From a candidate division WOR-1 bacterium RIFCSPHIGHO2_01_FULL_53_15 (GTDB lineage: Bacteria > Margulisbacteria > WOR-1 > O2-12-FULL-45-9 > XYB2-FULL-48-7), in contig METM01000027.1 of the NCBI GenBank assembly GCA_001772335.1, forward strand, positions 21,776 to 84,470: a stretch of DNA of 62,695 bases. Direction: 5' to 3'. A program made the translations under genes and the position numbers. The notes beneath the pieces were generated by a model. That model saw nothing but the letters and a program-made list of their open reading frames with translations. It made no database searches and had not been told where the DNA came from. Shown here piece after piece: positions 32,328-47,492 of this stretch (positions within the stretch are counted from its first letter, which is position 1; the number at the start of each line of letters is the position of its first letter).

Positions 32328-32353
32328 ATTTTATTTACTATGGTATGACATTA
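32328..32353 (-). promoter_or_regulatory. conserved promoter-like element P1
   Basis: Minus strand: TAATGTCATACC-ATAGTAAA-TAAAAT, upstream of the AAA ATPase gene. Overlaps the perfect palindrome CATTACTATAGTAATG. Confidence 0.55.
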
Positions 32354-32440
32354 CTATAGTAATGCCAAGCGCAACATTTTCAGCGTTTTTATAACTATTA
32401 TTCATTGCTTTTCTATCCCACCGGCCAACATTTTAACTGT

Positions 32441-32489
32441 TCTATATAATTATACTCCGTCATGTCACAATGGATAGGGCGCAACAGGA
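32441..32489 (-). repeat. surE 3'-end remnant B (degenerate)
   Basis: The central 23 nt match surE at 21/23. It reads ...PIHCDMTEYNYIEQLK. Confidence 0.65.
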
Positions 32490-32495
32490 TTTTCA

Positions 32496-33032
32496 TTATT
32501 CCTCAATCTCAACCTCCCCTTCGCGATTAACTCTTAAAGAATTAAACTCGATATCGCCTTTTTTAATAGTTGACTGAATTGATTTAAGAATTTTTTCTTG
32601 TTTGCCATTATGCGGCTCATAAGCGACAAAATCAATGCTCTTTATTCTTTCACTTTCAGAATTCATGCCGTCAAATACAATAAAATCAACCGGATCAAAG
32701 ATCGTTTTAACATCCTGCGGATCTATTCCCTTCCCGGAAAAAAGCGGATCAATCTCTTTAAGCCTGCGTTTCGCTAATAACTGCCCTTTTCTCCTTGCTT
32801 TTTCCTGCTCCATGATCATCAACTCATCAAATCGTATTTCATAAGCTTCTTTACGCTGCTCTGCTTTTACAACTTTATTTTCATATTGTTTCAATTTTAA
32901 AAATTGATCATCCTTTTTCTCTCTTGAAGGGAACCGGAATTTTGCGTCAGAAAGATGAAATATCTCGCCGCAGCACGGGCAAACACCATAGATAGCCTGG
33001 AACTCATCGATAAGGTCTAATAACTTATTCAT
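32496..33032 (-). CDS. Zn-ribbon / coiled-coil / Holliday-junction-resolvase-like endonuclease family protein (paralogue 2)
   Basis: CPCCGE..F N-terminal ribbon, a charged coiled coil, and a C-terminal DPVDFIVFDG...I..IDFV module. The internal ATG 33032 overlaps the upstream stop by 8 nt. Confidence 0.5.
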   Translation of the reverse strand: MNKLLDLIDEFQAIYGVCPCCGEIFHLSDAKFRFPSREKKDDQFLKLKQYENKVVKAEQRKEAYEIRFDELMIMEQEKARRKGQLLAKRRLKEIDPLFSGKGIDPQDVKTIFDPVDFIVFDGMNSESERIKSIDFVAYEPHNGKQEKILKSIQSTIKKGDIEFNSLRVNREGEVEIEE

Positions 33033-33543
33033 CCTTGACCACCTCGAGATTGACCCTGCCACCCCTGACAATCCGCCTAATATCCTTCTGCGAATCTGAA
33101 AGCACCGCATTCCCTGATTTAACATCAATAAAAGAAATGAGATCAACCTTATTCTTGCTGGCCAGGTTGTTAAAAATAATATAATCGATCGGCTCATACA
33201 AAGCTCGGCAATCCTTAATATTATAAGGAAAACCACTAAATGAAGGGACTATCTTTTCCACGATTTTACCGAAATTCACTCCTGCCGTTGTGGCTTTTAT
33301 TCTTTTAGGCTTCTCGATTTTTTTGGTTCGCAATTTTTTCCTTTCCGCCTTAACCGTTGCCACGCGCAAATCCAAATCGGTCCATGTTTTATCATATGTC
33401 CTTTTTATCTTCTGGGGCAACTCCTCCTTAATTGAAAACATATTTGCTGATCGCGGGTAAAAACTTTCTTCGCAAGCGGGGCATTCTAATTTCAGGCCTT
33501 TGATACGCTCGATCTGTCTTATAATATCGCCTTTTCTACTCAT
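33025..33543 (-). CDS. Zn-ribbon / coiled-coil / Holliday-junction-resolvase-like endonuclease family protein (paralogue 1)
   Basis: CPACEE..F ribbon, a basic coiled coil, and EPIDYIIFN...V.LISFIDVKSGNAVLS..Q..I...V..G, resembling the archaeal Hjc-related endonuclease family. Confidence 0.5.
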   Translation of the reverse strand: MSRKGDIIRQIERIKGLKLECPACEESFYPRSANMFSIKEELPQKIKRTYDKTWTDLDLRVATVKAERKKLRTKKIEKPKRIKATTAGVNFGKIVEKIVPSFSGFPYNIKDCRALYEPIDYIIFNNLASKNKVDLISFIDVKSGNAVLSDSQKDIRRIVRGGRVNLEVVKDE

Positions 33544-33567
33544 TTATAATTTCCCCCTTTTAACTGA

Positions 33568-33598
33568 TCCATCATCGCATACTCCGTCATATCGCAAT
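33568..33598 (-). repeat. surE 3'-end remnant C
   Basis: 31/31 nt identical to surE 34978-35008. It reads CDMTEYAMMDQLKGGNYK*, and its TGA overlaps the next ATG. Confidence 0.85.
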
Positions 33599-33605
33599 CG
33601 GCACC

Positions 33606-34208
33606 TTATGCTTTCCTTCTCACCTCTGATAATGCGCGGTCAATAGGTTCAATAAAAAGCGCAAGATTATTGAACGCATCCATGATGTTCTCTGCAAATG
33701 TCCCTTTTCTAAGTATTTCTATCCATTCATCTGGGGACTGCTTTAATTCATAGTAAAAAATAAAATCATTATCGCTTTCAATTTTAATGCCTTTAAAACT
33801 ATTTTTTGCTTTTTCTGCAGCTAAATTAAAGGTTTCAGCGAATTTTGCGGGTTTATCTATTTTTGTCCTAATCTTCTCTGACCATATCCCGGCATTTGGA
33901 TGTTCATCGGCCGTCCCCATTAACCCATCCAAACTAATTTTGCCAACCCAAAGCGATACATGATCCCATTTATCTGTCCCAATTTTCCATGATTTTTTGC
34001 ATATTCCGACTTCGCTGTAGTTAGAATAAAACATTGGGGCTTCAAACTGTTTCTTGTCCCACCATTCACTTTCGATCAGTCTTGCTTTAACTTCATTCTG
34101 CAGACATGAAGCCATATTCCCTTCAATATCATTTACGCAATTAATTAATTTTGCAGTGTCCCCCCAATTTTCCAGCAGAAACGTCTCATGTTCTTTCGTT
34201 TTCTTCAT
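33606..34208 (-). CDS. hypothetical protein
   Basis: 200-aa ORF overlapping the preceding nuclease-like gene by 23 nt. No motif recognised. Confidence 0.45.
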   Translation of the reverse strand: MKKTKEHETFLLENWGDTAKLINCVNDIEGNMASCLQNEVKARLIESEWWDKKQFEAPMFYSNYSEVGICKKSWKIGTDKWDHVSLWVGKISLDGLMGTADEHPNAGIWSEKIRTKIDKPAKFAETFNLAAEKAKNSFKGIKIESDNDFIFYYELKQSPDEWIEILRKGTFAENIMDAFNNLALFIEPIDRALSEVRRKA

Positions 34209-34947
34209 CTCTGTCCTCCTTTATGCTTTTATTGATCCTAATGATATTATTTTCGATACATTCCTTATACTGTTCCGCCACCCATTTAGTTTTTTCTGCC
34301 TCAGCCATACGCGCAAAATCGTTTAGGCAGCGAACCATGGTATCCCACCCGACCCATGAAAACATCGTTCCCTCAACAACATCGGTAGCATTCTCCTTCG
34401 ACAAGAGAAATCCCCATCTACGTTTTTCATTGATGCCAAATGACTCGGCTCTTTTTATCAAATCCACTTCTTCCCTTTTAAGCTGTTCTTTTGTGGGTTT
34501 CATGCCGACCTTGTTTTCGATATGTATAATAAATCTATTCATTGTTTTTCTGATAATCTCGATATCTATCCTTGATTCATCCCCTGAAACTTCTTTCTTA
34601 ACACAGAAATCGGGCCCGTCAAGTATTTCCACGGGCAACCTTTTTTCCCTAATGAAAATACTAAAGAACAGGTCTTTTTGCGCATGAGTTTCTGTTGGGT
34701 CTAACAACCAAGCGAGAAATTTACTGTGTTTCATCTCATCATATGTAAAACCAAGAATATCTAATATGTTGATTTCTTCGGCATTCTTCCTTTGTTTTTC
34801 CCGGACTCCTTTAAGCATCTCTATAAATTGATTAATATATTTTTCATTTTCCGCTAATAACGATGAATAATATTTATCTTCAAGCTCAACAAACGAAGAC
34901 AATGTTCTTTTAAAGCGGCTTACTAATTGCAATGCGGTTTCAGGCAT
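34186..34947 (-). CDS. PD-(D/E)xK nuclease superfamily protein
   Basis: HSKFLAWLLDP ... ESRIDIEI ... FIIHIENKV is the D...E.K arrangement seen in stand-alone PD-(D/E)xK families. The ATG overlaps the surE TAA (TAATG). Confidence 0.55.
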   Translation of the reverse strand: MPETALQLVSRFKRTLSSFVELEDKYYSSLLAENEKYINQFIEMLKGVREKQRKNAEEINILDILGFTYDEMKHSKFLAWLLDPTETHAQKDLFFSIFIREKRLPVEILDGPDFCVKKEVSGDESRIDIEIIRKTMNRFIIHIENKVGMKPTKEQLKREEVDLIKRAESFGINEKRRWGFLLSKENATDVVEGTMFSWVGWDTMVRCLNDFARMAEAEKTKWVAEQYKECIENNIIRINKSIKEDRDEENERT

Positions 34948-35711
34948 TATTTGCTTTTATACCATTCTTTGATTTGTTCCATCATCGCATACTCCGTCAT
35001 ATCGCAATGGAGCGGCGTGATGGAAACATAACCTTGATTGATCGCATCAATATCACTATCCTGCTCGCCTTCCAGGTCAATAACCTCACCAGACAGCCAG
35101 TAATAAATCCGGCCGTGAGGATCGGTCCGCTTGTCGAATTTCTCGATAAAGGCTCGCTTGCTCTGCCGCGTAATCTTAACGCCTTTTACCTTTGACTTCA
35201 CCACCGCTGGAACATTGACATTAAGCAGTATCCCTTTCGGTAAACCTTTTTTAATGACCATTAAGGCTATCTTGCGAGCAAATTGGGCGGCAAAAGTATA
35301 ATCGGGCTTAGTAAATGTCCCCAGGGAGATCGCCATTGAAGGAATACCAAGGATAACGCCTTCCGTCGCACCCGATACTGTCCCCGAATAAAGGACGCTG
35401 AAGCCGGTATTGGGGCCGAGATTGATCCCGGAGATGACGAGGTCAGGTTTTTGCTTGAGGATCGCCCGGACCGCTAGCTTAACGCAATCGGCCGGCGTGC
35501 CAGTAGTTGAGTAAATATTTTTGTCCAACTGGTTGACCCGGAGAGGATCAGAGAGGGTGATCGCGTGACCGACCGCGCTCCGTTCGCTGTCGGGGGCGAC
35601 GATCGTGACATCCCCTATTCCCTTAACCGCTTTGTAGAGCGCCTGGATCCCGGCAGCGCTGATGCCGTCATCGTTAGTTAGAAGTATGCGCGGCTTACGC
35701 TTCCTAATCAT
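34947..35711 (-). CDS. surE: 5'/3'-nucleotidase SurE
   Basis: ILLTNDDGI..AGI, SGINLG.N and GYVSITPL motifs. Confidence 0.92.
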   Translation of the reverse strand: MIRKRKPRILLTNDDGISAAGIQALYKAVKGIGDVTIVAPDSERSAVGHAITLSDPLRVNQLDKNIYSTTGTPADCVKLAVRAILKQKPDLVISGINLGPNTGFSVLYSGTVSGATEGVILGIPSMAISLGTFTKPDYTFAAQFARKIALMVIKKGLPKGILLNVNVPAVVKSKVKGVKITRQSKRAFIEKFDKRTDPHGRIYYWLSGEVIDLEGEQDSDIDAINQGYVSITPLHCDMTEYAMMEQIKEWYKSK

Positions 35712-35752
35712 AAATTAAATTTTACTCTGTACACTGCCCAATAACAAGGCAG

Positions 35753-36169
35753 TTAGCGTTCGCCATTCTGGGCCTCGAGATAGACCTGCCGCCAGGCTTC
35801 CCGATCGATCGCCTCCTGCTCGAATTCATCCGTGGTTTTGACTGGATATAGAAGTGAATTCAATTCCCAGAGCTCTTCCGAGGTAAAGCTTGCCAGCCCT
35901 TTCCCCTGATAATATTCCCGCCACCGCGTCAGCTTCGGCTTGTCCCGCGGCGCCCGTCCATCGATCAAAAGCTCGACCTCTTCGCAACGGTTGAGGAATT
36001 TATTCGCTTTCCAGCGCTCCTTTTCGTCCAGATAAAAAAGGACCCAGCCTGTTTCGGGATCGATCGTCCATTTTTCGATCTTCAATTCCATTAAAAGCGC
36101 CTGGACAAAACCATCCTTTGGAATATCACCTAATTTGACTATCGCTTCAATAGTCTCGTCTTCCATCAT
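35753..36169 (-). CDS. hypothetical protein
   Basis: 138-aa ORF overlapping the upstream gene by 4 nt. No motif recognised. Confidence 0.45.
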   Translation of the reverse strand: MMEDETIEAIVKLGDIPKDGFVQALLMELKIEKWTIDPETGWVLFYLDEKERWKANKFLNRCEEVELLIDGRAPRDKPKLTRWREYYQGKGLASFTSEELWELNSLLYPVKTTDEFEQEAIDREAWRQVYLEAQNGER

Positions 36170-36381
36170 TCAACCTCCGCCCCGCATTGGGCGCATTTGA
36201 GCGTTGAGGAGATAATGTCCAGGTCCGGAGAGCCGCCGGAGAGAACCAGCCCCGATCTCCCTTTTGAGATCGACACTTCTTCCCGATAATTCGCCATCCC
36301 CTCATTGATGAACGAACTGCTCCCGCACGCGCAGGTATAAGTTTCGTTTTCTTCTTTTTGTTTAACTTTTTTCTTTGCCAT
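36166..36381 (-). CDS. small Cys4 zinc-ribbon protein
   Basis: MAKKKVKQKEENETYTCACG...(42 aa)...CAQCGAEVE. The internal ATG 36381 overlaps the ClpX-like 3' end by 20 nt. Confidence 0.4.
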   Translation of the reverse strand: MAKKKVKQKEENETYTCACGSSSFINEGMANYREEVSISKGRSGLVLSGGSPDLDIISSTLKCAQCGAEVE

Positions 36382-37396
36382 TGTTATTTGCCTCCTGTTT
36401 ACCAATATCGAACATCCGGTCCTCAAAAAACCGCCTGACCAGCGGGCCGACACAGCGCCCGCCCATTGCCTCGTGCGCTTTTGAAGCGGTGACGATCAAG
36501 TGAATTATCTCGGTATAGACGCCGGCTTCCTCGCCCGATATGGGAACATAGAAATTATACTCCTCCACTTCTTGCCTGATAAGCTGCTTGACCGCTTCCC
36601 CGTCAAGCGGCTCCAGGCGGATAATATTGCCGAGCCGATTGGCAAATTCCGGGATAAAGCCGTAGCGGACCAGGTCTTTATTATTTATTTCCTCTTTTTC
36701 TGCCAAACGGCCAAACGCCCCGCCAAAGATAAAGAGCACATTGCTGAAGTTAAACTTTTCCCGGTCATACTCCGTGTGGTCCGGCTCATAATAAACCTCC
36801 CCGCCGTCAATAATAGGGAGTAAATCTTGCTGGACGCCGCTGCCGGCAAAATCATCATCGCACCCCCAGCAGTTTCTGATCTTATCGATCTCGTCAATAA
36901 AGACGATCGCCCATTGAGCCTGTCGCCTTTGCTCTTTAGCCGAGGCCCGCAGCAGATCAACGATCTGTTCCGCGTGCATCCCGCCGCGGTAGCCCCGCTG
37001 GGTAAAATTAGTCGCATCAAGCTTTAGGTAAGGGACTTCGGCAATATCGGCCAGCGCCTTGGCCAGCATCGTCTTGCCGCAGCCGGACGGGCCGATCAGC
37101 AGCGCGTTCGTCTTGGGCAGCTGTTTCCCTTCTCGGGCCAACGCATAACGCTTGAGATGCTGGTAAAGGATGACCGACAAACTTTTTTTGGCCTCCGCCT
37201 GCCCCAGGACAGTTTTATTTAGCTCCTCGCAGATCTTTGACGGCGGGATGACAGGGTCATCAGCAAAAAGCTTCTCCTGCCTGGTGAGATTTTCCCGCCG
37301 ACCGCCCGCCGGCTCCTTTTCCGGCGCCACCAGCCCGTCAAACGCCCTGGCGATATCTTCTGCCGACAATAACTCTTTTTCCGACATTTTAAACAC
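36362..37396 (-). CDS. ClpX-like AAA+ ATPase lacking the N-terminal zinc-binding domain and the IGF-loop region
   Basis: L...V.GQ..AKK.LSV..Y.H.KR, Walker A IGPSGCGKTMLAKALA, pore-loop GYRGG, FIDEIDKI, GVQQDLLPIIDGG and GFIPEF.NRL all parallel ClpX. There are no N-terminal Cys residues and only a short segment where the IGF loop would sit. Confidence 0.7.
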   Translation of the reverse strand: MFKMSEKELLSAEDIARAFDGLVAPEKEPAGGRRENLTRQEKLFADDPVIPPSKICEELNKTVLGQAEAKKSLSVILYQHLKRYALAREGKQLPKTNALLIGPSGCGKTMLAKALADIAEVPYLKLDATNFTQRGYRGGMHAEQIVDLLRASAKEQRRQAQWAIVFIDEIDKIRNCWGCDDDFAGSGVQQDLLPIIDGGEVYYEPDHTEYDREKFNFSNVLFIFGGAFGRLAEKEEINNKDLVRYGFIPEFANRLGNIIRLEPLDGEAVKQLIRQEVEEYNFYVPISGEEAGVYTEIIHLIVTASKAHEAMGGRCVGPLVRRFFEDRMFDIGKQEANNNGKEKS

Positions 37397-37406
37397 CTCC
37401 GGCTAT

Positions 37407-37432
37407 ATTATAAAGGGAGCACAGTGACATTA
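37407..37432 (-). promoter_or_regulatory. conserved promoter-like element P2
   Basis: Minus strand: TAATGTCACTGT-GCTCCCTT-TATAAT, then a leader with GGAGG before the ClpX-like ATG. The plus strand shows the near-palindrome TGACATTATGTGTCA. Confidence 0.55.
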
Positions 37433-37521
37433 TGTGTCATGGTCAAGCAGATGCGCTTTAGGCAGATAGCGAACTCGGGCCCTGGCCGTTTCCAGATCGC
37501 TGATATATTCGTGGACTACTT

Positions 37522-37788
37522 TTACCACGCCCAGCCGCCCAGCTCCCGGAGGTCTTTTAGCGCCGGGCCTTTCAGGAACGAAAAAAGAAGAACTTTCTTG
37601 TGCTGGAAGGCAAACCCTTTTAAGGCGTAGGTCATCCCAAGTAAATAATCCTTGATCCGCCTCGCCTCCTCTTTGTTGACCGCTTGCTCCAGTGAAACGA
37701 GGATCTTGCCCGCCTTGCGGTATTTAATCGCCGCCTTTTTCCCCTCGTCATAATCCTTCGGACAATAGATCCTTGATATTACCGGCAT
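37522..37788 (-). CDS. hypothetical protein
   Basis: 88-aa ORF overlapping the upstream gene by 10 nt. Confidence 0.35.
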   Translation of the reverse strand: MPVISRIYCPKDYDEGKKAAIKYRKAGKILVSLEQAVNKEEARRIKDYLLGMTYALKGFAFQHKKVLLFSFLKGPALKDLRELGGWAW

Positions 37789-38633
37789 ATTTCCCCTCCT
37801 TTTTTCTTTTTCCCCGGCGGATCAAAAAGCTCCCAGAGTTGCCGGGGATCATTTAATGAGATCAGCCATTTTCCGCTTCTCATGTTTTTTAATATTTCGA
37901 AGACAACTTTTTGCGGCCGCTTGGACCTGTCCCTCTCCCAGTAGAGCCGGCAGAGGTATTGCACCAGAGGGGCGCAGCTCGCTACCTCCCGGGAGAGCTC
38001 GGCGCCGTTTTCCGTTTCCAGCGCGTTGACGGTAATAATAACAGCGGCATTATATTCTTCGGCCAGCCGCTTGATCTCTTTAACTGCCTTTTGGAGAAGT
38101 CCGGAGCGAAGCGCGGCACGATCACCTTGTTCGGGATAGTATTCGTAGATATAATCGATAGAGTCAATTATCACCAGCCAGGCCGGGATCTTTCTGGCAT
38201 GTTTCTCAACAGGGTCCATCGCCCTGACCTTTTCGGCCGGTTCTTCGTAAGCATATTTCTGGAATAGCAGTTCCATCTCGCTTGGTCTGGCCTCATCTAT
38301 CTCCTCACAGGAAACGCCTTGCACCGGTTCGATATAAAGGGGCGCTTTGGCGCCCGCGCCTGACAGACGATTGGCGATATTTGCCGGCCTTGATGAGGTC
38401 AAATAGAGCGTTTTGATGTTATTTTTGACCGCGCAAAACAGGGCGGCAGAGACGCAGAAGGCGGTTTTACCGGCCGCGTGCGGAGCAGAAACCGCCATAA
38501 TCTCCCCCGGCTCCATGCCGCCGCTCGCCTGGCTAATTAAACGCGCTCCGGTAAATATCGACTCTTTCTTACGCGCTTTTTCGATCTTTTCGGCAGCCAG
38601 TATCTCTTTTATTTTCATAGCGGGCGCCTCCAT
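37779..38633 (-). CDS. RecA-fold ATPase resembling the DnaB helicase C-terminal domain
   Basis: GGMEPGEIMAVSAPHAAGKTAFCVSAAL (Walker A) and VIIDSIDYI (Walker B-like). There is no DnaB N-terminal domain. Confidence 0.55.
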   Translation of the reverse strand: MEAPAMKIKEILAAEKIEKARKKESIFTGARLISQASGGMEPGEIMAVSAPHAAGKTAFCVSAALFCAVKNNIKTLYLTSSRPANIANRLSGAGAKAPLYIEPVQGVSCEEIDEARPSEMELLFQKYAYEEPAEKVRAMDPVEKHARKIPAWLVIIDSIDYIYEYYPEQGDRAALRSGLLQKAVKEIKRLAEEYNAAVIITVNALETENGAELSREVASCAPLVQYLCRLYWERDRSKRPQKVVFEILKNMRSGKWLISLNDPRQLWELFDPPGKKKKGGEICR

Positions 38634-38639
38634 ATGCTA

Positions 38640-38665
38640 TTTATACCATGGGCGGTATGACATTA
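38640..38665 (-). promoter_or_regulatory. conserved promoter-like element P3 (leaderless layout)
   Basis: Minus strand: TAATGTCATACC-GCCCATGG-TATAAA, then 6 nt before the ATG at 38633. Confidence 0.6.
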
Positions 38666-38671
38666 ATTGTC

Positions 38672-39418
38672 TTAGCGGTTCAAGATAGTTTTTGCCAGAG
38701 CAAGAGTGGGTTTTTTACCGGCGAGGGAAGCGTAGGCGGCGACCCTGATCAGGGCGCCCTCAAGCGCCCTGATGTTTGTAGTAATCCTTTTTACCAGATA
38801 AGCAAGCACTGCGGCGGGGACTTTATAATTTCCCAGTTTTGCTTTATTTTTTAAGATAGCAAGCCGCGTCTTAATTTCCGGCTGTTTGATCTTAACAATA
38901 GTCCCATGCTTAATAACCGGCAACTGGCACAACTTTTGGCTAAATATCGTGCCAGGCGGCCGGTCGCTCGTGATCACTATCTGTTTGCCCAATTTATACA
39001 ATTCGCTCAAAATGCCGATCAGCTCGCCCGCAGTCCGCTCCTTATGCCGCACAAATTGAAGATCGTCCAAAAGGAAGATGTCAGGGGCGCAATACTTCTT
39101 TCGGAAGCTATTATATTTGCCCAGCCGGAAAGCTTTAACAAGATCGCTGACGAATCTTTCCGTTGACACATAAGCGACTTTGCGCGGCGGCCTCTTATTT
39201 AAAATATAATTACCGATGGCCCACATTAAATGCGTTCTCCCCAACCCTTCCCCTCCGGTAATAAATAACGGGTTGTGCCGCTTCTCCAGCCCCCTGGCGA
39301 CATCAAGCGCCGCTTTAAAAGTGACGCGATTGGACGCGCCAACAACAAACGAGCTAAAAGCATATCTTTTGTAACGCCCATCCTTTTTCAGGTAAATACT
39401 ATTATCAAAGCTTTTCAC
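38672..39418 (-). CDS. DnaA domain-III-only (Hda-like) AAA+ protein with Walker-A Lys replaced by Arg
   Basis: FSSFVVGASN..A...A, NPLFITGGEGLGRTHL, LLDDLQF, ITSDRPP and the box VII/VIII-like NIRALEGALIRV. It ends where DnaA domain IV would begin. Confidence 0.7.
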   Translation of the reverse strand: MKSFDNSIYLKKDGRYKRYAFSSFVVGASNRVTFKAALDVARGLEKRHNPLFITGGEGLGRTHLMWAIGNYILNKRPPRKVAYVSTERFVSDLVKAFRLGKYNSFRKKYCAPDIFLLDDLQFVRHKERTAGELIGILSELYKLGKQIVITSDRPPGTIFSQKLCQLPVIKHGTIVKIKQPEIKTRLAILKNKAKLGNYKVPAAVLAYLVKRITTNIRALEGALIRVAAYASLAGKKPTLALAKTILNR

Positions 39419-39442
39419 GATCGCCTCATTTTCTTGCCCGCA

Positions 39443-39655
39443 TCAGTTTTTAGCTTTTATCTGCGCGATGAGCTCTCTTGCCTCACCTACGCGCTGCTTG
39501 TTATCCAGATACGCATTTCTCATCGTCTTCGCCAGACCAATCAAACCGTTTAAGCTCTCGCTCATGGATCTGTCCAGGGCATCGATATTGTTATCGATCC
39601 GGGAAAGATTTTCCAACAGAATCTCTGTCCGGTCATTTCCTCGCTTTTTTCGCAT
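39443..39655 (-). CDS. small coiled-coil hypothetical protein
   Basis: 70-aa ORF downstream of element P4. Confidence 0.35.
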   Translation of the reverse strand: MRKKRGNDRTEILLENLSRIDNNIDALDRSMSESLNGLIGLAKTMRNAYLDNKQRVGEARELIAQIKAKN

Positions 39656-39779
39656 GGCACACCCCCTCCACCCTATATAAACGTTTTATTTTTCCAAAAA
39701 ACTAAACTGGCGCCACTTTTTCGCGGCTTTATGCTTAATTTATTTTTCAAACTGGCGGCATCAGAATAATATATACCAT

Positions 39780-39805
39780 GGGCGGTGTGACATTAATGGG
39801 CAGGG
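39780..39805 (-). promoter_or_regulatory. conserved promoter-like element P4
   Basis: Minus strand: TAATGTCACACC-GCCCATGG-TATATA. It shares a 27-nt block (26/27 identical) with P3. Confidence 0.55.
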
Positions 39806-39815
39806 GATGCGGTAT

Positions 39816-40628
39816 TTATTTCTTTATTTTATCGCCAAGCCACTGGAGATCTTTATCGCTCCACCAGCGGCAAGCAAAATGGGGAACGACAAATATACGC
39901 GGCCTTAGAGCAGCGAAGCTAAGCATCGTGCAACCCTTACCGTTATGTTTATTGATCCTAATTTCCTGGCATTCATTTTCTTTCCCTTCGGCAAACACAG
40001 AAATATATTCTTTGGTATGCAATCTGCCAAAGCACAACACAAAATCAATATGCTCCCTGTTCTTATCGAACATCTCCTTCAACCGCCCAAATCTATTACT
40101 TTTGCACCATTTGTAATATTCTTCCTTGTCTTTCATGCCGGTTACTGTTTTTTCGGCCTCGCTAAAAGTAGTTGTTGTTTTTGGAAAATCAAGGGGATAT
40201 AGATTTACCTGAAAAGTATCCCCATTTTGGCATTTAGCGGTAAATAATTTTTTGGAAATATATTCCTGCCAATACTCTTTCCAGTTATTGCTATTTTCTA
40301 TCTGAGCAATCACCTTTGCCATTTTTTGGCATGTCCGCCAGCTTGTATATTTACCGTTGCGTTCGTCATTATATTTCAATTTGAAGTTATCATCCCATTC
40401 CATAGGCACTTGATCACGACTGAATCTTTCGTTTTCACTCCGGATTTGATCGACTAATCCTTTGTGCCTGTTATCCTTTGTCTTTTCATCAACTTTTCTG
40501 CCGTATTCAACACCGCTAAACCAATATTTGCCCCCGGGATTGCCCACCATGCCGGAATAGCTTAACGCCCATTCCTCAAATTCATTATTTACATGATATT
40601 CATGAGAATTTGTGTCATCATTATTCAT
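39816..40628 (-). CDS. hypothetical protein
   Basis: 270-aa ORF whose ATG overlaps the stop of the HEAT-like gene (ATGA). No motif recognised. Confidence 0.45.
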   Translation of the reverse strand: MNNDDTNSHEYHVNNEFEEWALSYSGMVGNPGGKYWFSGVEYGRKVDEKTKDNRHKGLVDQIRSENERFSRDQVPMEWDDNFKLKYNDERNGKYTSWRTCQKMAKVIAQIENSNNWKEYWQEYISKKLFTAKCQNGDTFQVNLYPLDFPKTTTTFSEAEKTVTGMKDKEEYYKWCKSNRFGRLKEMFDKNREHIDFVLCFGRLHTKEYISVFAEGKENECQEIRINKHNGKGCTMLSFAALRPRIFVVPHFACRWWSDKDLQWLGDKIKK

Positions 40629-40870
40629 TGATTTTTTTCTCCTTGCTTAAATTGTATCATACCAGCCGCCTCCCTCACCAGATAATGCTCATCAAGAGCC
40701 AGGCGGCGTAAAACCTTAAGCGGGCATTTCTTATGCTTCGCCACTTTTTTTCGCACCGGAAAGAACTCGTCGCGACTAAGCCGAGCTAAGATGCCGGCGG
40801 TTGCGGACGGATTGGCGGCGGCCGCTTCCCTGACCGGCCATGACTCATCACGGGAAAAGCGCTCTAACAT
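40625..40870 (-). CDS. HEAT/leucine-rich-variant-like repeat protein
   Basis: Repeated D(E)..PVR..AA motifs (DESWPVREAAA, DEFFPVRKKVA, DEHYLVREAA). Confidence 0.45.
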   Translation of the reverse strand: MLERFSRDESWPVREAAAANPSATAGILARLSRDEFFPVRKKVAKHKKCPLKVLRRLALDEHYLVREAAGMIQFKQGEKNQ

Positions 40871-41034
40871 ATCCAGCGGGATCCGCCTGTCCCTGATCGC
40901 TTGAGCCCTTTGGCTTTGGCCCAGGCCTTTGTCCGCTGCGTCTTCCCCTGACCTGTACCACCCCAGAGAAACGGCGTCACGTATATCCCCTCGCTATTTT
41001 TCTGCCATAAGACATCCAGCGCTTTTTCGATCAT
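40864..41034 (-). CDS. 56-aa P-loop fragment (not in the ORF track; possible frameshifted N-terminus of the HEAT-like gene)
   Basis: GGAGG-N7-ATG, then MIEKALDVLWQKNSEGIYVTPFLWGGTGQGKTQ..., i.e. beta-strand plus Walker A, terminating 56 codons in. The HEAT frame is open across its 3' half. Confidence 0.3.
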   Translation of the reverse strand: MIEKALDVLWQKNSEGIYVTPFLWGGTGQGKTQRTKAWAKAKGLKRSGTGGSRWIC

Positions 41035-41118
41035 GTTGATTGCCTCCGGAAGTTATTATAAATGAGCCACCCTGACAGAAAGTGGCAGGGGGTTGTGGTA
41101 TAATAAATATCAAGCAAC

Positions 41119-41826
41119 ATGATCGAAGCTGAGCTTAGCCACAAAATAGATAACCGCTCCGAAGACGTATTAACCTCTACGGTTTTTGGCCTATTAAAGT
41201 ATTCTTTTGCTAAAGATCTATTGATCTCTTTCTTAGGCAAAGCCCAATCTGTTTCCGACCCCAGCTCATATTTTTCACATTTGATCGGGGATCACCTTTT
41301 ATTTGCCGGTGATTATAGATTCGTCTTTTGGAAATATTTTGATCGTTATGGCGAACCGGACCTAATAATCGAAGGGCCCGATTATGTCATTATAATCGAA
41401 GTTAAATATTTATCCGGGCTGTCGGGCGAATTGCAGCTGGAAAATTATCATAATTTAATGGAGAATAAATATAAGAAGAAAGCCAATAAATATTTGATTT
41501 TCTTAACCGCGGACTTATCCATACCCGGGTTACCCGCCTCAACAATAAATTTACTTAAAGACAAGAATTTTTTCTGGCTATCATGGTATGAACTAAACAA
41601 AGCGATATTATCTATTTCTATGACTTGCGGAGGCACATTAAAAGAGATATCGGCTGATCTGCTTAGATTGCTGAAAGAAAGCAGAAATATCGTAGAATTT
41701 GAAGGATTCAGCAAATATAATATTATGCCTAGGCAGAACTATCTTTTCTGGAAACAGAGGGAAAGTATTTTCAGCCAATATCGTAAAGCTGAATTGCCAG
41801 ACCCAATATTTTTTAAGGGGGAGTAA
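41119..41826 (+). CDS. PD-(D/E)xK-like nuclease-fold protein
   Basis: GEPDLIIEG.DYVIIIEVKY gives a D...(E)VK core. Preceded by TGTGGTATAAT (extended -10). Confidence 0.45.
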   Translation: MIEAELSHKIDNRSEDVLTSTVFGLLKYSFAKDLLISFLGKAQSVSDPSSYFSHLIGDHLLFAGDYRFVFWKYFDRYGEPDLIIEGPDYVIIIEVKYLSGLSGELQLENYHNLMENKYKKKANKYLIFLTADLSIPGLPASTINLLKDKNFFWLSWYELNKAILSISMTCGGTLKEISADLLRLLKESRNIVEFEGFSKYNIMPRQNYLFWKQRESIFSQYRKAELPDPIFFKGE

Positions 41827-41830
41827 TTAT

Positions 41831-42418
41831 ATGGATGACAAAGGCAATAATGTGATTGATTTAATCAGGCAGATGGAAAAACTATATATTGAGATCTCAA
41901 GGCTGATTAAATGTTTTGATAAAAATATCCAAAAGAGAGGATATCTCCTCCCTTCAAGCTCCTCATCTGTAATAAAAGATATTTCACAATCATTAAATGC
42001 GCCAGAAAATTGGCTCCCAATGTGGTTATATCGCAACTACCAAAACAACGCCAACAAAGAAGTATTATCCTTGAATATCGCCCTAGATTATCCTGAGTTC
42101 CCTGAAAGGATAAATGAGCCATTAGTCCTTGTCGCGAAATTTAGCGGTAAAAAAGTTGATCTTGATCATGCGTGGTATCCATGGGATATATATTTTCATT
42201 TCAGGCCATTAACAAAGCGGTACAATAAAATATACCTGCTTAAGGATTTTAACCTTAATGATAATGATACTTTGGAAGAGTTATCCGACTGGTCAAAGGA
42301 AGAAAAAGAAAATCTGACAAATCACTTTAAAGCCATTAGTTTTATTGCCGCACCCCTGATGGAGATGAGCGATGAAAAGAACATTATCAAATTCATTGAT
42401 CCCATTTTTAATCAATAA
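41831..42418 (+). CDS. hypothetical protein
   Basis: The internal ATG 41831 lies directly after the upstream stop. 195 aa, no motif recognised. Confidence 0.45.
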   Translation: MDDKGNNVIDLIRQMEKLYIEISRLIKCFDKNIQKRGYLLPSSSSSVIKDISQSLNAPENWLPMWLYRNYQNNANKEVLSLNIALDYPEFPERINEPLVLVAKFSGKKVDLDHAWYPWDIYFHFRPLTKRYNKIYLLKDFNLNDNDTLEELSDWSKEEKENLTNHFKAISFIAAPLMEMSDEKNIIKFIDPIFNQ

Positions 42419-42426
42419 TATTTAAT

Positions 42427-43410
42427 ATGGAACGCCACATACTATTCAGGATTTATGATATCGACCGGATGCTCAAGCGGAAAGAATATCCGAACTGCAC
42501 AAAGCTAAAAGAATATTTCCTTGAACATCACGGCTTAACCCTCTCGATCCGGACGATCATGCGCGACATTGACACTATGCGGCTTGACCTCGGCGCTCCT
42601 ATCGAGTATGACCGCGAAAAGAACGGCTATTACTATGAAAATGAGAGTTTCTCGCTCCCGGCCGTCCGCCTGACCGAAGGGGAACTGATCTCGATCTTCC
42701 TGGCCGAAGAGATCTTGAAGAAATATAAAAATACCCCGTTTGAAGCGACGATCAAGCGCGCGTTTGAGAAAGTCGAATTGCTCCTGCCACAGAGCGTCTC
42801 GATCGATTTCAATGAGATCGGCCAGGCCTACTCTTTTGATATCCGGCAGACCCGCCCCCTGGACAAGCAGTCGGCCAAGGTTTTTGACACGCTGGCCAAG
42901 GCGATCGGAGATAAAATGAGTGTGGAGATCAACTATTACGCCATCAGCCGCAACGCGACGCAAAAACGGGTCATCGATCCTTATCACCTGCGCCATACCC
43001 AGGGCGCCTGGTATTTGGTCGGTTATTGCCATCTCAGGAAAGAGGTGCGGACATTCGCGGTCAACCAGATCAGATCTATAAAAACGTTGAAAGAGCCTTT
43101 CACCGTCCGGGCGGACTTCTCGCCGGAAAAATTCTTTGAGCACTCCTGGGGGATATCGGAAGGTGGGCCTTTGACAAAAGTCGTGGTTAAAATCGACAAA
43201 GAGATCGCTCGCTGGTTTGAAGACCGCAAGCTCCACTCCAGCCAGCAAACCAAAGAAAACAAAGACGGCTCCCTCACCCTAACCTTCCGCGTCGCCGGGA
43301 CGAATGAGATCAAGCGGTGGATATTGAGCCAGGGAAGATATGCTAAAGTGGTGGAGCCGAAAGAATTGGAGCAGGAAATTAGGAGAGAGGTAATGGAGAT
43401 TTTGAAATAG
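42427..43410 (+). CDS. WYL-domain transcriptional regulator (wHTH-WYL-WCX architecture)
   Basis: N-terminal HTH region, then RVIDPYHLRHTQGAWYLVGYCHLRKEVRTFAVNQIRSI, the classic WYL core, and a C-terminal extension. Confidence 0.85.
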   Translation: MERHILFRIYDIDRMLKRKEYPNCTKLKEYFLEHHGLTLSIRTIMRDIDTMRLDLGAPIEYDREKNGYYYENESFSLPAVRLTEGELISIFLAEEILKKYKNTPFEATIKRAFEKVELLLPQSVSIDFNEIGQAYSFDIRQTRPLDKQSAKVFDTLAKAIGDKMSVEINYYAISRNATQKRVIDPYHLRHTQGAWYLVGYCHLRKEVRTFAVNQIRSIKTLKEPFTVRADFSPEKFFEHSWGISEGGPLTKVVVKIDKEIARWFEDRKLHSSQQTKENKDGSLTLTFRVAGTNEIKRWILSQGRYAKVVEPKELEQEIRREVMEILK

Positions 43411-43428
43411 GGAGGGGATGATTTAATT

Positions 43429-44250
43429 ATGTTGGAAAAATATTGGTATCCCAAAATTCAGAAGTATTTAGAAAACGAAGGCTATGTTTGTCATGGGTTT
43501 TACAAAAATGGGAAGAAGCTCGATTTTATTGATACGGGGATAGGCAATGCTCGCATTGATGTTCTGGGCATAAAAAGGGCATCTTTAATCGCATCAAATT
43601 TTCAACTCGAAACAATTGGAGTTGAAGTAAAACATATCGGTAAAATTACCATTAAAAATATAAGACAAGCCGCAAGTTATGCTCACCTTTGCACAAGATG
43701 CTATTTGGCGGCTCCAGTAGAAAGATTCTCCGAAAATGATAAGAAAAATGCAGCTCAAGCAGGGGTTGGATTAATCCGCTTAAAAAGAAAAAGAGTTGAT
43801 GTTATTGTTGAATCTAATAAGTTTCAACCAGACATCGATTTAATAAATCAGTTTCTATGGTTCTTAAATGTGGTTTTTTGCCCAATATGCAGAACATATA
43901 AGCATCGCTACGACCCAAAGGAACTTAAATATAATGGTGGATCTTGGAGAAATGATATATTTTCAAAAAAGAATAAATGGATATATATTTGCAACGAATG
44001 CAATATTAAGCTTTCAAAGAATACCAGACAATATCTAATGGCCCGGGAACTGGAACAGATTAGAAATCGATTTGAGGGAATTGAACAAAAACTTGCTAAA
44101 ACAAAAAGACATGTAGATAAAATAGACAACTATTATTACCATAAATATTTGAAGCTGAAGGGCAAAGGAGAGCGAAGCATCAAAAGGCTTGACAATTACT
44201 ATTATTCAAAGCATGCAAATCTAAACAGGGCATTGAAGAAGATTAAATAA
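43429..44250 (+). CDS. PD-(D/E)xK-like domain + Cys4 zinc ribbon + coiled-coil protein
   Basis: ARIDVLGI ... IGVEVKH core, CPICRTY...CNECN ribbon, and a C-terminal repeat (DNYYY.KY/H). Confidence 0.45.
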   Translation: MLEKYWYPKIQKYLENEGYVCHGFYKNGKKLDFIDTGIGNARIDVLGIKRASLIASNFQLETIGVEVKHIGKITIKNIRQAASYAHLCTRCYLAAPVERFSENDKKNAAQAGVGLIRLKRKRVDVIVESNKFQPDIDLINQFLWFLNVVFCPICRTYKHRYDPKELKYNGGSWRNDIFSKKNKWIYICNECNIKLSKNTRQYLMARELEQIRNRFEGIEQKLAKTKRHVDKIDNYYYHKYLKLKGKGERSIKRLDNYYYSKHANLNRALKKIK

Positions 44251-44299
44251 TTTAACATCCCCCCGTCCCGAGTGGCAGATTGACAAAGAAGGGATAATC

Positions 44300-44818
44300 A
44301 TGAAAGAACATGAAGTAATAGCAAAGACTTTAGTTTACTTAATAAAAAAAGAACAAGCAGAGATTAATTCAGTCGCGACCCCTAAAAAACATGAAAAATA
44401 CATTAAAAAAGCCATCAATAATGCCGGTCTGACAAAAAATCAAATAAATTTGATAACTTTTAAACAGGTAGGGGCGGATATAATTGCTGTTCTAAAATTT
44501 AAATCCGGACGACCACAAAAACGCATACAAATCGAAGCAAAAGGCGGAAATGTATATTACGGCATCTATACAGCATTGGGTCAGTTCATCTGTTTAAAAG
44601 AATCGCCTAGCACATATCATTGGTTTGCGTTCGCTTTCCCACTTCGTTGGCGAGAGAAAATAAGGAAATGGCTTTTAACTCCCAAGGAAAGGATAAAACC
44701 GGTAATTCGAGATATTATAAATCTATACACCAAAAACGGACAAGGCTTATGGTTTTATTTTATAAATGAAAAAACAGGGAAAGCAATAAAAGAAACATGG
44801 GAAACGACCTTGCGATAA
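44300..44818 (+). CDS. PD-(D/E)xK-like nuclease-fold protein
   Basis: GADIIAV ... RIQIEAKGG core. Confidence 0.4.
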   Translation: MKEHEVIAKTLVYLIKKEQAEINSVATPKKHEKYIKKAINNAGLTKNQINLITFKQVGADIIAVLKFKSGRPQKRIQIEAKGGNVYYGIYTALGQFICLKESPSTYHWFAFAFPLRWREKIRKWLLTPKERIKPVIRDIINLYTKNGQGLWFYFINEKTGKAIKETWETTLR

Positions 44819-44915
44819 CGAAGAAACCATGGAATGGCCAAATTGAATAACTCATAAAAAAATAATATCATAACCTTTTTTGTGTATTTGGCAAAAAGCC
44901 CCCACCCCTGTCCCG

Positions 44916-44941
44916 TAGTGTCATACCCCTCGTGCCATAAT
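44916..44941 (+). promoter_or_regulatory. conserved promoter-like element P5
   Basis: TAGTGTCATACC-CCTCGTGC-CATAAT, 10 nt before the ATG at 44952. Confidence 0.6.
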
Positions 44942-44951
44942 TACCGGTAGA

Positions 44952-45395
44952 ATGCCGTTTAAAACTTTAACCGATCTATATTTTGACAACAAAATTCAGG
45001 TCATCCCGCCCCGGGCGCTGACTTTCTTCGGCTACCTTAATGAGCTTGAAAAGACGCTGAAGACACCGGGGCTGATCGATCTGGATGAGGCCGACTTAAT
45101 GACCATCCTGTTCGGCGCCAGCCGGGCGGCTATTGTTGTGATCGAGTCCCCGCTTAAAGAGATAACCGGAAAATTGCGCCGCACTCTGCGGCAGGTCAAA
45201 GCCAAAAAAGCGGACGGCGCAATCTTCCATGTCATCGGCGATGAAAACATGACGCTATCAGATGTCAACGATGTCGCTGAAACAATTTATACCGTTCTCA
45301 ATGACAAGGCCAATATTATTTTTGGCGCGGCGATCGATGAAGAGATGAAAAGAACCGTCAGGGTGCTGATAATTCTGGTCAATCGGGATGAATGA
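44952..45395 (+). CDS. FtsZ C-terminal-domain-only homologue (T7-loop region onward; no GTP-binding domain)
   Basis: TPGLIDLDEADLMTIL parallels FtsZ TPGLINLDFADVKTIM. MTLSDVNDVAETIYTVLNDKANIIFGAAIDEEMKRTVRVLIILV parallels FtsZ LSLYEVQEAADIV...NMIFGSVINENLKDEIVVTVIATG. Confidence 0.7.
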   Translation: MPFKTLTDLYFDNKIQVIPPRALTFFGYLNELEKTLKTPGLIDLDEADLMTILFGASRAAIVVIESPLKEITGKLRRTLRQVKAKKADGAIFHVIGDENMTLSDVNDVAETIYTVLNDKANIIFGAAIDEEMKRTVRVLIILVNRDE

Positions 45396-45509
45396 AATTA
45401 AACAATGAACCCGAGGAGGTATGCGGATGAGGATGAACCAAGAAGTTTCCGTGAAGATGTCAGAGAAGAAACGAAAGCAGTTGCCCGCGGGTAGTCATGC
45501 CTGGCCTCG

Positions 45510-45535
45510 TAGTGTCATACCCCTCCTGCCATAAT
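45510..45535 (+). promoter_or_regulatory. conserved promoter-like element P6
   Basis: TAGTGTCATACC-CCTCCTGC-CATAAT, 12 nt before the ATG at 45548. Confidence 0.6.
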
Positions 45536-45547
45536 TACCGGCATAAT

Positions 45548-45835
45548 ATGTTGACTTTCCTTAAACAATTATTCTGCAAGCATAAATGGGCGGCGCGCAA
45601 AGACATGCCCGTCGCGGCCTTGATCAGATCACGGGGTAGAACAAAGAGGTGCAGTAAATGTCAAAAAGAGTGGACCGACCCGTCGCTTAGGGGCATCCCC
45701 ATAAGTTTATCCTACCGAATAGTCGAATTCTGGGAAATAATGTATTGGGACCGGAAAATACTTCGCTTAAGCATGAGCGACGCTTACAAAGCATCGAAAA
45801 AGCTGAACGCGCTCACTTTACAGGAAAGGAGCTGA
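45548..45835 (+). CDS. small hypothetical protein (Cys/Lys-rich)
   Basis: The internal ATG immediately after element P6 (MLTFLKQLFCKHKW...CSKCQKEW) gives 95 aa. Confidence 0.35.
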   Translation: MLTFLKQLFCKHKWAARKDMPVAALIRSRGRTKRCSKCQKEWTDPSLRGIPISLSYRIVEFWEIMYWDRKILRLSMSDAYKASKKLNALTLQERS

Positions 45836-45844
45836 TCTGCCCCA

Positions 45845-45870
45845 TAATGTCATCCCCCTAGTGCCATACT
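45845..45870 (+). promoter_or_regulatory. conserved promoter-like element P7 (leaderless layout)
   Basis: TAATGTCATCCC-CCTAGTGC-CATACT, 6 nt before the ATG at 45877. Confidence 0.55.
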
Positions 45871-45876
45871 ACAACT

Positions 45877-46083
45877 ATGATTAATTTACTAATGCCCGGG
45901 CTTGTGTTGATCGCCATGATCTGGAGTTTTGGCTGTGTCGTTTACTGGCTCGCCAAGACCGCGGAGTGGCTGGAAAACGCCGGCCGACCGCCGGAGATCC
46001 ATATCCACAATCACCCCGTTCAGCGGGAAGTTTATGTCTCAAGGATCATTGAGAAAGAGAGACGGATTTTCTTGCCTAGATAG
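45877..46083 (+). CDS. small membrane protein
   Basis: 68 aa with one N-terminal TM helix (LLMPGLVLIAMIWSFGCVVYWL). Confidence 0.35.
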   Translation: MINLLMPGLVLIAMIWSFGCVVYWLAKTAEWLENAGRPPEIHIHNHPVQREVYVSRIIEKERRIFLPR

Positions 46084-46128
46084 CTAGATAGGTGGTATAA
46101 TATTATCAAATATGCGGGGTGTAAAATA

Positions 46129-46671
46129 ATGAGCAAAAGTCATGAGTTACATTTAATGATCGGTGAGTCGATCAATTCGGCCTTTGAAGGGAAAGCAGGC
46201 ATTAAAGTTGTCAGAGATGAGGCTTGCGGTGGGAAGCAGCATATCCCCCTGTTTTTATCTGAAAATAAGAAGAGGGAAAATGTTATTTGTAATGTGGATT
46301 TAATGGTCATAAAAGATAACCACATATCCATAATTATTGAGATTGAGGAATCAAATGTAAAGCCAACGCAGATTTGCGGCAAATACCTGACCTCCGCGAT
46401 TTCAGTCTGTTACTTTCACGCAAAGGAGAACAATAAACCCGTAAGAATGTCAAAAAACGTCTTATTTATTCAAGTTTTGGATAATATAAAATTGCCGAAA
46501 GGATCGGTTAAGATCCCGCAATGGATACAAATCGGGGAAAGGATCAAAAAAGTAATAAGCGACTTTCACGGCACATCAGTCAATAAATATGAATTGCTTT
46601 TTGGGAATAAGGGCCAATTTAGCGGCCTTGAAAAAGCGTTGATAAATAAGATTGAGGCGCACCTAACCTAA
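46129..46671 (+). CDS. PD-(D/E)xK-like nuclease-fold protein
   Basis: NVDLMVI ... IIIEIEESNVKP core. Preceded by TGGTATAAT. Its stop directly abuts the ATG of the HD gene. Confidence 0.4.
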   Translation: MSKSHELHLMIGESINSAFEGKAGIKVVRDEACGGKQHIPLFLSENKKRENVICNVDLMVIKDNHISIIIEIEESNVKPTQICGKYLTSAISVCYFHAKENNKPVRMSKNVLFIQVLDNIKLPKGSVKIPQWIQIGERIKKVISDFHGTSVNKYELLFGNKGQFSGLEKALINKIEAHLT

Positions 46672-47440: not shown

Positions 47441-47492
47441 ATAAATACTAAATGCTAAATACTAAACAAGACCAAAATACTAATGACCAAAA
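47441..47492 (+). repeat. heptamer-based (CTAAATA-type) repeat block, 5' flank and N-terminus of four-helix-bundle gene 1
   Basis: ATAAATACTAAATGCTAAATACTAAACAAGACCAAAATACTAATGACCAAA. A direct copy lies at 47856-47907. Confidence 0.7.

Follow-up and report, generated by a model that had tools for sequence, protein, structure and literature searches.

A class of WYL-controlled promoters without a −35 box is known from PafBC, DriD and SiwR. At the RecA-NDp promoters of mycobacteria, PafBC acts by 'sigma adaptation' on tGTCgg-N10-tAnnnT, with no −35 box (PMC8635444); one helix-turn-helix (HTH) is placed on the DNA and the other on sigma region 4, and G-T-C is read by R46/R50 of PafB and by R37/R41 of DriD (PMC8635444, PMC10853764). 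DriD of Caulobacter crescentus is a homodimer on the pseudo-palindrome ATACGAC-N7-GTCGTAT (PMC13004042, PMC10853764, PMC9186387), which covers the −35 position; its distance to the −10 box is the same in all DriD promoters, none of which has a −35 box (PMC13004042). SiwR of Mycobacterium smegmatis, again a homodimer, recognizes an imperfect palindrome with an essential −26 region and is encoded divergently from its targets (PMC10693628). A second group, CapW and BrxR, comprises homodimeric, ligand-responsive repressors of CBASS, BREX and defence islands (PMC9122588, PMC9122601, PMC11662680); CapW palindromes overlap the −10 box (PMC9122588), and in the repressor group the WYL motif is replaced by RWHVR (PMC11662680). 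Here we analyse a repeated promoter element and a WYL regulator gene encoded among its copies in a 62,695-nt stretch of contig METM01000027.1 (positions 21,776 to 84,470) from the candidate division WOR-1 bacterium RIFCSPHIGHO2_01_FULL_53_15; this whole stretch will be referred to as the window.

On balance, the nine copies of the element found in the window are probably promoters of one regulon, which the island's own regulator, a protein with a winged HTH (wHTH), a WYL and a WCX domain, would control as an activator. From the arrangement of the sequences we infer binding of the protein, activation as the direction of control, a ligand and the transcription start sites. The regulator gene is located as follows.

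42427-43410, + strand: wHTH-WYL-WCX regulator of 327 amino acids, the proposed cognate factor

In the proposed mechanism a regulator dimer would bind the imperfect inverted repeat cTGNCN-N5-TGTCA, with Arg42 and Arg46 of each recognition helix reading the G-T-C of a half-site. The proximal TGTCA, 11 or 12 nt upstream of a TATAAT-like −10 box, would then occupy approximately −29 to −25, over the missing −35 box, and the ligand-bound WYL dimer would supply the contact otherwise given by that box. The whole island would in this way be induced together by one sensor protein.

Alignment of the sites across loci showed that the 12-mer originally noticed upstream of each hexamer is the promoter-proximal half of this inverted repeat. 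In short divergent intergenic regions one perfect TGACA-N5-TGTCA serves a promoter on each strand. To describe the geometry, TGTCA followed by a hexamer with at least five of six matches to TATAAT was counted in the 25 loci whose WYL homologue is at least 53% identical, 302 kb in total (retrieved loci carrying WYL homologues are labelled with L numbers). The spacer length peaks at 11 nt (17 cases) and 12 nt (26 cases), with approximately 0 to 8 cases, on average about 4, for each of the other spacers; no such peak was observed in 187 kb taken from loci with more distant WYL homologues (25 to 41% identity). Removal of duplicates left 49 sites, 14 of them regulator promoters and 35 target promoters, with the following properties.

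Spacer of 10 nt: 3 of 14 regulator promoters, 0 of 35 target promoters
Spacer of 11 nt: 10 of 14 regulator promoters, 10 of 35 target promoters
Spacer of 12 nt: 1 of 14 regulator promoters, 25 of 35 target promoters
TGn before the −10 box: 11 of 14 regulator promoters, 16 of 35 target promoters
Perfect TATAAT: 12 of 14 regulator promoters, 12 of 35 target promoters
Perfect distal TGACA: 12 of 14 regulator promoters, 14 of 35 target promoters

The proximal half-site, including its GTC, is invariant in target promoters, and the distal half is degenerate. None of the 49 sites has more than 3/6 matches to TTGACA at a distance of 16 to 18 nt from the −10 box. Together with the fixed spacing of 11 to 12 nt, this bears out the proposal of an earlier note on this DNA that the hexamer is a −10 box and that the 12-mer does not qualify as the −35 box of a sigma-70 promoter; the sites are not canonical sigma-70 promoters, having a −10 box and no TTGACA-like −35 box. 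The start codon mostly follows the hexamer by 6 to 30 nt, and for regulator genes by 7 to 12 nt, which is a leaderless or nearly leaderless layout.

Three other assignments of the conserved bases were considered and rejected. A sigma-54 promoter (TGGCAC-N5-TTGC) does not apply, since its invariant GG is missing. Reading ATGTCA as a weak −35 box that pairs with another −10 box 16 to 17 nt downstream fits P1 and P4 only (sites listed below) and is not a general solution. The distal TGACA, at 21 to 22 nt from the −10 box, is too distant to be a −35 box.

In the window, seven copies (P1 to P7) had been noted at first, each with a 12+8+6 architecture and oriented toward the adjacent gene. Searching the whole window for TARTGTCAYACC-N8-YATAAT with at most three mismatches yielded exactly seven sites, compared to 0.07 expected from shuffled sequences, and both architecture and orientation hold for 7/7. 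Six of the sites lie where they had been placed, whereas P4 is found at 39770-39795 on the − strand and not at 39780-39805, a difference of 10 nt. The consensus as first written is exact in P5 and P6, with one mismatch in P1 and P3, two in P4 and P7 and three in P2. All seven units are real, but the number has to be raised to nine, since two further sites (P8 and P9) lie back to back on one common operator at 41055-41104; they had been overlooked because their 12-mer differs (CTTTCTGTCAGGGT, with a TGGCA counterpart on the opposite strand). The nine promoter units, which span the low-GC island from 29.3 to 47.3 kb, and the genes behind them are given here in order of position, including the distal half-site where present.

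32328-32360, − strand: P1, TAATGTCATACC-N8-TAAAAT, distal half-site absent and a 16-bp palindrome in its position; AAA_14/DUF4143 ATPase gene (30851-32305, −) and probably also the DUF2779 gene (29273-30751, −)
37407-37439, − strand: P2, TGACA-CATAA-TGTCA-N12-TATAAT; ClpX-like ATPase gene (36362-37396, −), then the Zn-ribbon open reading frame (ORF), orf138, SurE, PDDEXK_4, orf200 and Endonuc_Holl genes, to approximately 32496
38640-38672, − strand: P3, aGACA-ATTAA-TGTCA-N12-TATAAA; AAA_25/DnaB_C-like ATPase gene (37779-38633, −) and SepF-like gene (37522-37788, −)
39770-39802, − strand: P4, TGCCC-ATTAA-TGTCA-N12-TATATA; 70-aa ORF (39443-39655) and DnaA ATPase-only gene (38672-39418, −)
41055-41087, − strand: P8, TGCCA-CTTTC-TGTCA-N12-TATAAT, ATG 20 nt downstream; orf56 (40864-41034), LRV/HEAT gene of 81 aa and orf270 (39816-40628)
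41073-41104, + strand: P9, TGACA-GAAAG-TGGCA-N11-TGgTATAAT, ATG 14 nt downstream, operator in common with P8; NERD-like gene (41119-41826), the next ORF, the WYL regulator gene, orf273 and orf172
44909-44941, + strand: P5, TGTCC-CGTAG-TGTCA-N12-CATAAT, ATG 10 nt downstream; gene for an FtsZ C-terminal-domain protein (44952-45395, +)
45503-45535, + strand: P6, TAGTGTCATACC-N8-CATAAT, ATG 12 nt downstream, distal half-site shifted by 1 nt; 95-aa ORF (45548-45835)
45838-45870, + strand: P7, TGCCC-CATAA-TGTCA-N12-CATACT, ATG 6 nt downstream in a leaderless layout; 68-aa ORF, orf180 and HD-domain gene (45877-47286)

An extended −10 box, reported at first for several of the copies, is present as TGn in 5/7 sites, the TG standing one base ahead of the hexamer. 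The distances of 6 nt (P3, P7) and 10 to 12 nt (P5, P6) from the hexamer to the ATG also agree with the sequence. P2 and P3 have a second ATG, preceded by GGAGG, 19 to 21 nt after the −10 box, and P1 has a 22-nt leader with the GGAGG-like stretch GGGAGGGG. With such Shine-Dalgarno sequences before a slightly later start in P1, P2 and P3, the leaderless layout is not general among the units. The palindrome at P1 (32349-32364, CATTACTATAGTAATG) is a perfect one of 16 bp that overlaps the 5′ end of this site.

The sites are located in a low-GC stretch at approximately 29 to 48 kb of the window. The remaining 45 kb, a high-GC backbone with dxr, thrS, topA, mutL, aroA, radA and clpB-type genes, contains no further copy according to a weight matrix built from the seven sites, in agreement with the initial impression that the motif does not precede backbone genes. 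Beyond the window, the same element was found beside close homologues of the regulator (53 to 87% identity) on approximately 20 other Saganbacteria/Margulisbacteria contigs, including WOR-1. TopA of the window is 69 to 71% identical to TopA of Candidatus Saganbacteria/Margulisiibacteriota metagenome-assembled genomes (MAGs), a lineage that is placed in the Cyanobacteriota/Melainabacteria group. A match to the window was also found in GCA_001771345.1, a MAG from groundwater. The density of the full element was as follows.

Loci with close WYL homologues: 302 kb, 46 hits (15.2 per 100 kb)
Unrelated genomes: 233 kb, 0 hits
topA neighbourhoods of five Saganbacteria/Margulisbacteria MAGs: 82 kb, 0 hits
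topA neighbourhoods from other phyla: 1.3 Mb, 1 hit

Six loci were retrieved with 10 kb on either side, and in these all sites fall within the interval from −0.3 to +4.8 kb of the regulator start; the element is absent from loci that have only a 25 to 41% identical WYL homologue. A similar density of the motif at housekeeping genes, which the earlier note had named as grounds for giving up its claim, was looked for in the topA neighbourhoods of the lineage, with the result listed. Because the sites cluster near the regulator, within a few kb in the 20-kb loci, and are missing from those topA neighbourhoods, the element is not the general promoter of the lineage. That it is nevertheless a general promoter type of this organism or its relatives is very unlikely, even though promoters lacking a −35 box are numerous in relatives of cyanobacteria and in many other bacteria, and only a fraction of the genome was examined. 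Scanning 185,579 species-representative genomes, the source genome not among them, with a strict motif gave 34 single hits, all of them chance-like except one on a Saganbacteria contig that also bears a WYL homologue. A looser scan with the full element gave noise among the matches listed, the single Saganbacteria match being inside an otsA-like reading frame.

The genes behind the element are in part conserved, namely the regulator gene itself, ClpX-like genes (approximately ten loci), FtsZ_C-like genes (five), AAA_25 genes (three) and SurE. Sites orthologous to P2 precede ClpX-like genes in L051, L054, L056, L103, L111, L116 and L149, and those orthologous to P5 precede FtsZ_C-like genes in L055, L057, L101 and L118; in L055 a homologue of the P6 ORF comes after the FtsZ_C-like gene. 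An equivalent of P3 stands before the AAA_25 homologue in L051, the P8-type promoter TGTCAGGGTGGCTC..TATAMT recurs in L106 and L111, and an equivalent of P9 lies directly ahead of the WYL gene in 13 other loci.

A separate observation is that even the spacer separating TGTCA from the −10 box is conserved, across unrelated genes as well as across genomes (TACCnCCCATGGTA; TACCCCTCnTGCCATAAT), as seen in P3/P4, in P5/P6/P7 and at L055 4792, L116 12798 and L057 11047. Such conservation points to an additional contact or to promoter modules having been copied as a whole. Near-identical spacers within these groups and in other genomes are also what remnants of a duplicated or mobile DNA cassette without regulatory role would leave behind. 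We regard this as the least likely explanation of the copies, as only the promoter module of approximately 35 bp is conserved between unrelated flanks, each copy faces the start of the adjacent gene, mostly 6 to 30 nt away, and the copies are kept before orthologues of 53 to 87% protein identity, where neutral DNA would have decayed.

The WYL gene is the sole gene found in every element-carrying locus. Its product gives Pfam matches to WYL (E 6e-22) and WCX (E 2e-19) and carries the canonical WYL motif GAWYLVG, with W195, Y196 and L197 conserved in 33 homologues. R42 and R46 of the recognition helix are invariant in the same 33 homologues; R46 aligns with PafB R50, and R42 falls on PafB R46 by ungapped extension. 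These two arginines are predicted to read the invariant GTC of the proximal half-site, with the limitation that RTxxRD is common among YafY-type HTH domains. The best solved relatives are PafBC (family profile, E 1e-24) and DriD (E 1e-15), with CapW and BrxR at E 1e-4 to 5e-6. Foldseek with an AlphaFold model likewise placed DriD (5e-17) and PafBC (1.5e-15) ahead of CapW/BrxR (2.6e-11 and weaker); the model is of moderate quality (pLDDT 75.6, pTM 0.37) and served for ranking of folds only, not for geometry.

The strongest argument for the WYL protein as cognate factor is that recognition helix and palindrome occur together across phyla. Distant loci were retrieved by the recognition-helix peptide pattern [EQI]RT[IV][LM]RDI[ED], yielding 98 loci of 22 to 41% identity from Gordonia, Rhodococcus, Nocardia, Streptomyces, Chloroflexota and soil metagenomes. 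In 54 of these 98 distant YafY/WYL genes, TGACA-N5-TGTCA with at most one mismatch was detected just upstream, the expectation being 0.007 per window searched. In actinobacterial loci the palindrome is followed by 10 to 11 nt, an nAnnnT hexamer, 6 to 7 nt and then the ATG. Among the distant loci L072-L100 and L155-L180 the palindrome lies approximately 10 to 150 nt upstream of the WYL/YafY gene, and in some loci from soil merely 13 to 19 nt or so ahead of the start codon. The regulator had been suggested as a candidate for the dedicated factor, and the element's travelling with close homologues elsewhere and preceding the regulator gene support this. Recognition by some other dedicated factor, such as an alternative sigma factor or another island protein, is improbable. 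A bipartite layout of fixed spacing is what a sigma factor would give, and several island ORFs have no assigned function, but the island ORFs scanned included no sigma-like gene, the 11 to 12 nt from TGTCA to the −10 box leave too little room for −35/−10 recognition, and the upstream inverted repeat suits a dimeric HTH protein; the constant presence of the WYL gene and the tracking of palindrome with recognition-helix motif also speak against another factor.

Compared to the described systems, the locus is best read as a member of the class of WYL-controlled promoters without a −35 box to which PafBC, DriD and SiwR belong. A wHTH-WYL-WCX gene is encoded with the regulon, the spacing is fixed and a −35 hexamer is missing. 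With PafBC the island shares a WYL-family regulator, a bipartite promoter consisting of a GTC-containing element at about −26 and a canonical −10 box with no −35 box, and the two R-x3-R arginines in helix 3, there reading G-T-C and here (R42/R46) predicted to do so. Sites with the 11-nt spacer have exactly the GTC to −10 distance of PafBC, and those with 12 nt have one base more. PafBC proper is not present, as a single WYL gene occurs in the window and in all related loci, with no PafB/PafC pair or fusion. Further differences are a presumed homodimer instead of the PafB/PafC heterodimer, a site that is an inverted repeat, target spacers that are mostly 1 nt longer, the lack of the W70 wing residue, a local regulon rather than approximately 150 DNA-repair genes, and an origin in Saganbacteria, not Actinobacteria.

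DriD, the top Foldseek match, has the same wHTH-3HB-WYL-WCX organization (3HB, three-helix bundle) and is homodimeric; its promoters likewise combine a pseudo-palindrome carrying GTC in each half-site with a fixed −10 distance and no −35 box, and its gene, like the island regulator gene, sits divergently beside a target. DriD targets include the cell-division inhibitor didA, and the island targets include an FtsZ fragment. In contrast, DriD uses half-sites of 7 nt that are separated by 7 nt, compared to TGACA-N5-TGTCA in the island, the proteins are only about 22% identical, and two of six conserved contacts to single-stranded DNA (ssDNA) are replaced in the island protein. SiwR is similar in being a WYL regulator (a homodimeric activator) divergent from its targets, with a local regulon and an imperfect palindrome upstream of the −10 box, in SiwR between the −35 and −10 positions, but differs by a conserved triplet GGA instead of GTC, a palindrome of 19 bp and DinB-like enzymes as targets. 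A comparable design is found in phage T4 middle promoters, in which a MotA box at −30 and a −10 box are used in 'sigma appropriation'. There, too, a factor-specific element approximately 12 nt upstream of the −10 box replaces the −35 box (a comparison also made in PMC8635444), although the element is TGCTTtA and the proteins are unrelated.

As the sign of control, activation is the more probable. A less probable alternative is that the same WYL dimer at the same site represses self-sufficient extended −10 promoters over the −35 region and is released by a ligand, as in CapW/BrxR. The island resembles these systems in its wHTH-WYL-WCX regulator, its palindromic operator in a shared divergent promoter region (the layout of CapW, PMC9122588) and its defence-type genes (PMC9122588, PMC9122601, PMC11662680), which here are nuclease and defence-candidate genes (PDC-S01, NERD, Cas4-like). 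A palindrome 13 to 19 nt or so before the regulator start, as in the distant relatives mentioned, is a typical repressor position. The promoter sequences point the same way, with TGn in 11/14 regulator and 16/35 target promoters and perfect TATAAT in 12/14 regulator promoters. However, the island operator never overlaps the −10 box, as CapW operators do, but ends 11 to 12 nt upstream of it in all sites; such a fixed spacing across non-homologous genes and phyla is not required for steric repression, and the distal half-site is degenerate in target promoters. The protein carries GAWYLVG and not RWHVR, and its similarity to CapW/BrxR in sequence and fold is weaker by many orders of magnitude in E value than that to the activators. 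Layout, missing −35 box, recognition residues and similarity of sequence and fold are the reasons for placing the system with the activator group.

Several points nevertheless weigh against activation by the regulator. Extended −10 promoters of the frequency given above may fire without a −35 box or an activator, and this would suit repression just as well; the regulator's own promoters, near-consensus TGnTATAAT with a perfect palindrome, resemble autorepression; and one palindrome common to divergent genes is also the CapW arrangement. The spacer of most target sites, 1 nt longer than that of PafBC, the single regulator gene in place of a PafB/PafC pair and the lack of a counterpart to the PafB wing tryptophan W70 count in the same direction. 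In addition, the loci were gathered via the regulator itself, and co-occurrence was judged against control sequences, not genome-wide. As to the signal, four of the six DriD residues that contact ssDNA are kept (R178, Y192, R204 and W206, corresponding to R181, Y196, R208 and F210), which makes ssDNA a likely, though not an assured, ligand; the replacement of the other two (R176 by Q179, R207 by A211; contacts according to PMC9186387) is a further point on the opposite side. Under activation and repression alike, the island is induced on ligand binding by the WYL domain.

Behind P2, the gene for a ClpX-like AAA_2 ATPase precedes a small Zn-ribbon ORF and the genes for SurE, a PD-(D/E)XK nuclease and Holliday-resolvase-like endonucleases. 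Two partners of the regulator are conserved across loci, the ClpX-like ATPase, which often has the Zn-ribbon ORF and a DUF2779/Cas4-like gene beside it, and the FtsZ_C-like protein; the remaining targets differ from locus to locus, with TPR proteins and nuclease-like genes among them. The alignment of the FtsZ_C protein with Methanocaldococcus FtsZ covers residues 224-338 of the latter, and the T7-loop aspartates are kept (GLIDLDEAD compared to GLINVDFAD). Since DriD induces a division inhibitor, it is attractive to suppose that this fragment may likewise act as an inducible brake on division. Several other island proteins are also cut-down paralogues of core machinery: besides the FtsZ C-terminal subdomain, these are a DnaA AAA+ protein without domain IV, a SepF-like protein of 88 aa, a DnaB_C/RecA-like ATPase and the ClpX-like ATPase with its separate Zn-ribbon ORF. 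They may function as inducible inhibitors or decoys.

Taken further, the regulon might be an inducible cell-cycle brake or a decoy set of cut-down core machinery, including a ClpX-like unfoldase and a DnaA AAA+ module that lacks the DNA-binding domain, switched on together with nucleases through one WYL sensor after DNA damage or phage attack, and the module TGACA-N5-TGTCA, 11 nt, −10 box, 7 nt and leaderless ATG might be ancient in the very large YafY/WYL family, from Actinobacteria to the sister lineages of Cyanobacteria; we consider this combined proposal speculative and rather doubtful. The findings provide a concrete operator/promoter code (cTGNCN-N5-TGTCA, 11 to 12 nt, −10 box) for a WYL regulator of an uncultured phylum related to Cyanobacteria, and define a co-regulated gene set within an otherwise opaque island, in which the FtsZ, DnaA and SepF fragments could act on cell division and replication. 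They further suggest that the −35-replacing design of PafBC, DriD and SiwR is widespread rather than peculiar to Actinobacteria and Caulobacter, and that TGACA-N5-TGTCA could predict the regulons of hundreds of YafY/WYL regulators. A full-text literature search retrieved no paper describing TGACA-N5-TGTCA as a WYL operator, and both the operator consensus and the regulon appear to be undescribed in the literature searched.

No relative of the regulator was detected in viral contigs, and there is thus no evidence for a phage origin; a tRNA gene is not present. Analysis with PADLOC assigned no known defence system to the ClpX-like or FtsZ_C genes, and matched the AAA_14 and NERD genes to the candidates PDC-S01 and PDC-M15A. 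The remaining features of note are the following.

29273-30751, − strand: DUF2779 protein gene with a weakly Cas4-like N-terminus, recurring beside the ClpX-like/WYL module in L055 and L056
30851-32305, − strand: AAA_14/DUF4143 ATPase gene, the match to the PADLOC candidate system PDC-S01
54061-59000, + strand: SMC_N/AAA_23-type ATPase gene (745 aa) overlapping a 901-aa gene without assigned function
47452-47850, + strand: one of the 23S_rRNA_IVP (four-helix-bundle) genes

The SMC_N/AAA_23 region may represent further defence-type genes outside the regulon, and it is flanked by the 23S_rRNA_IVP genes.

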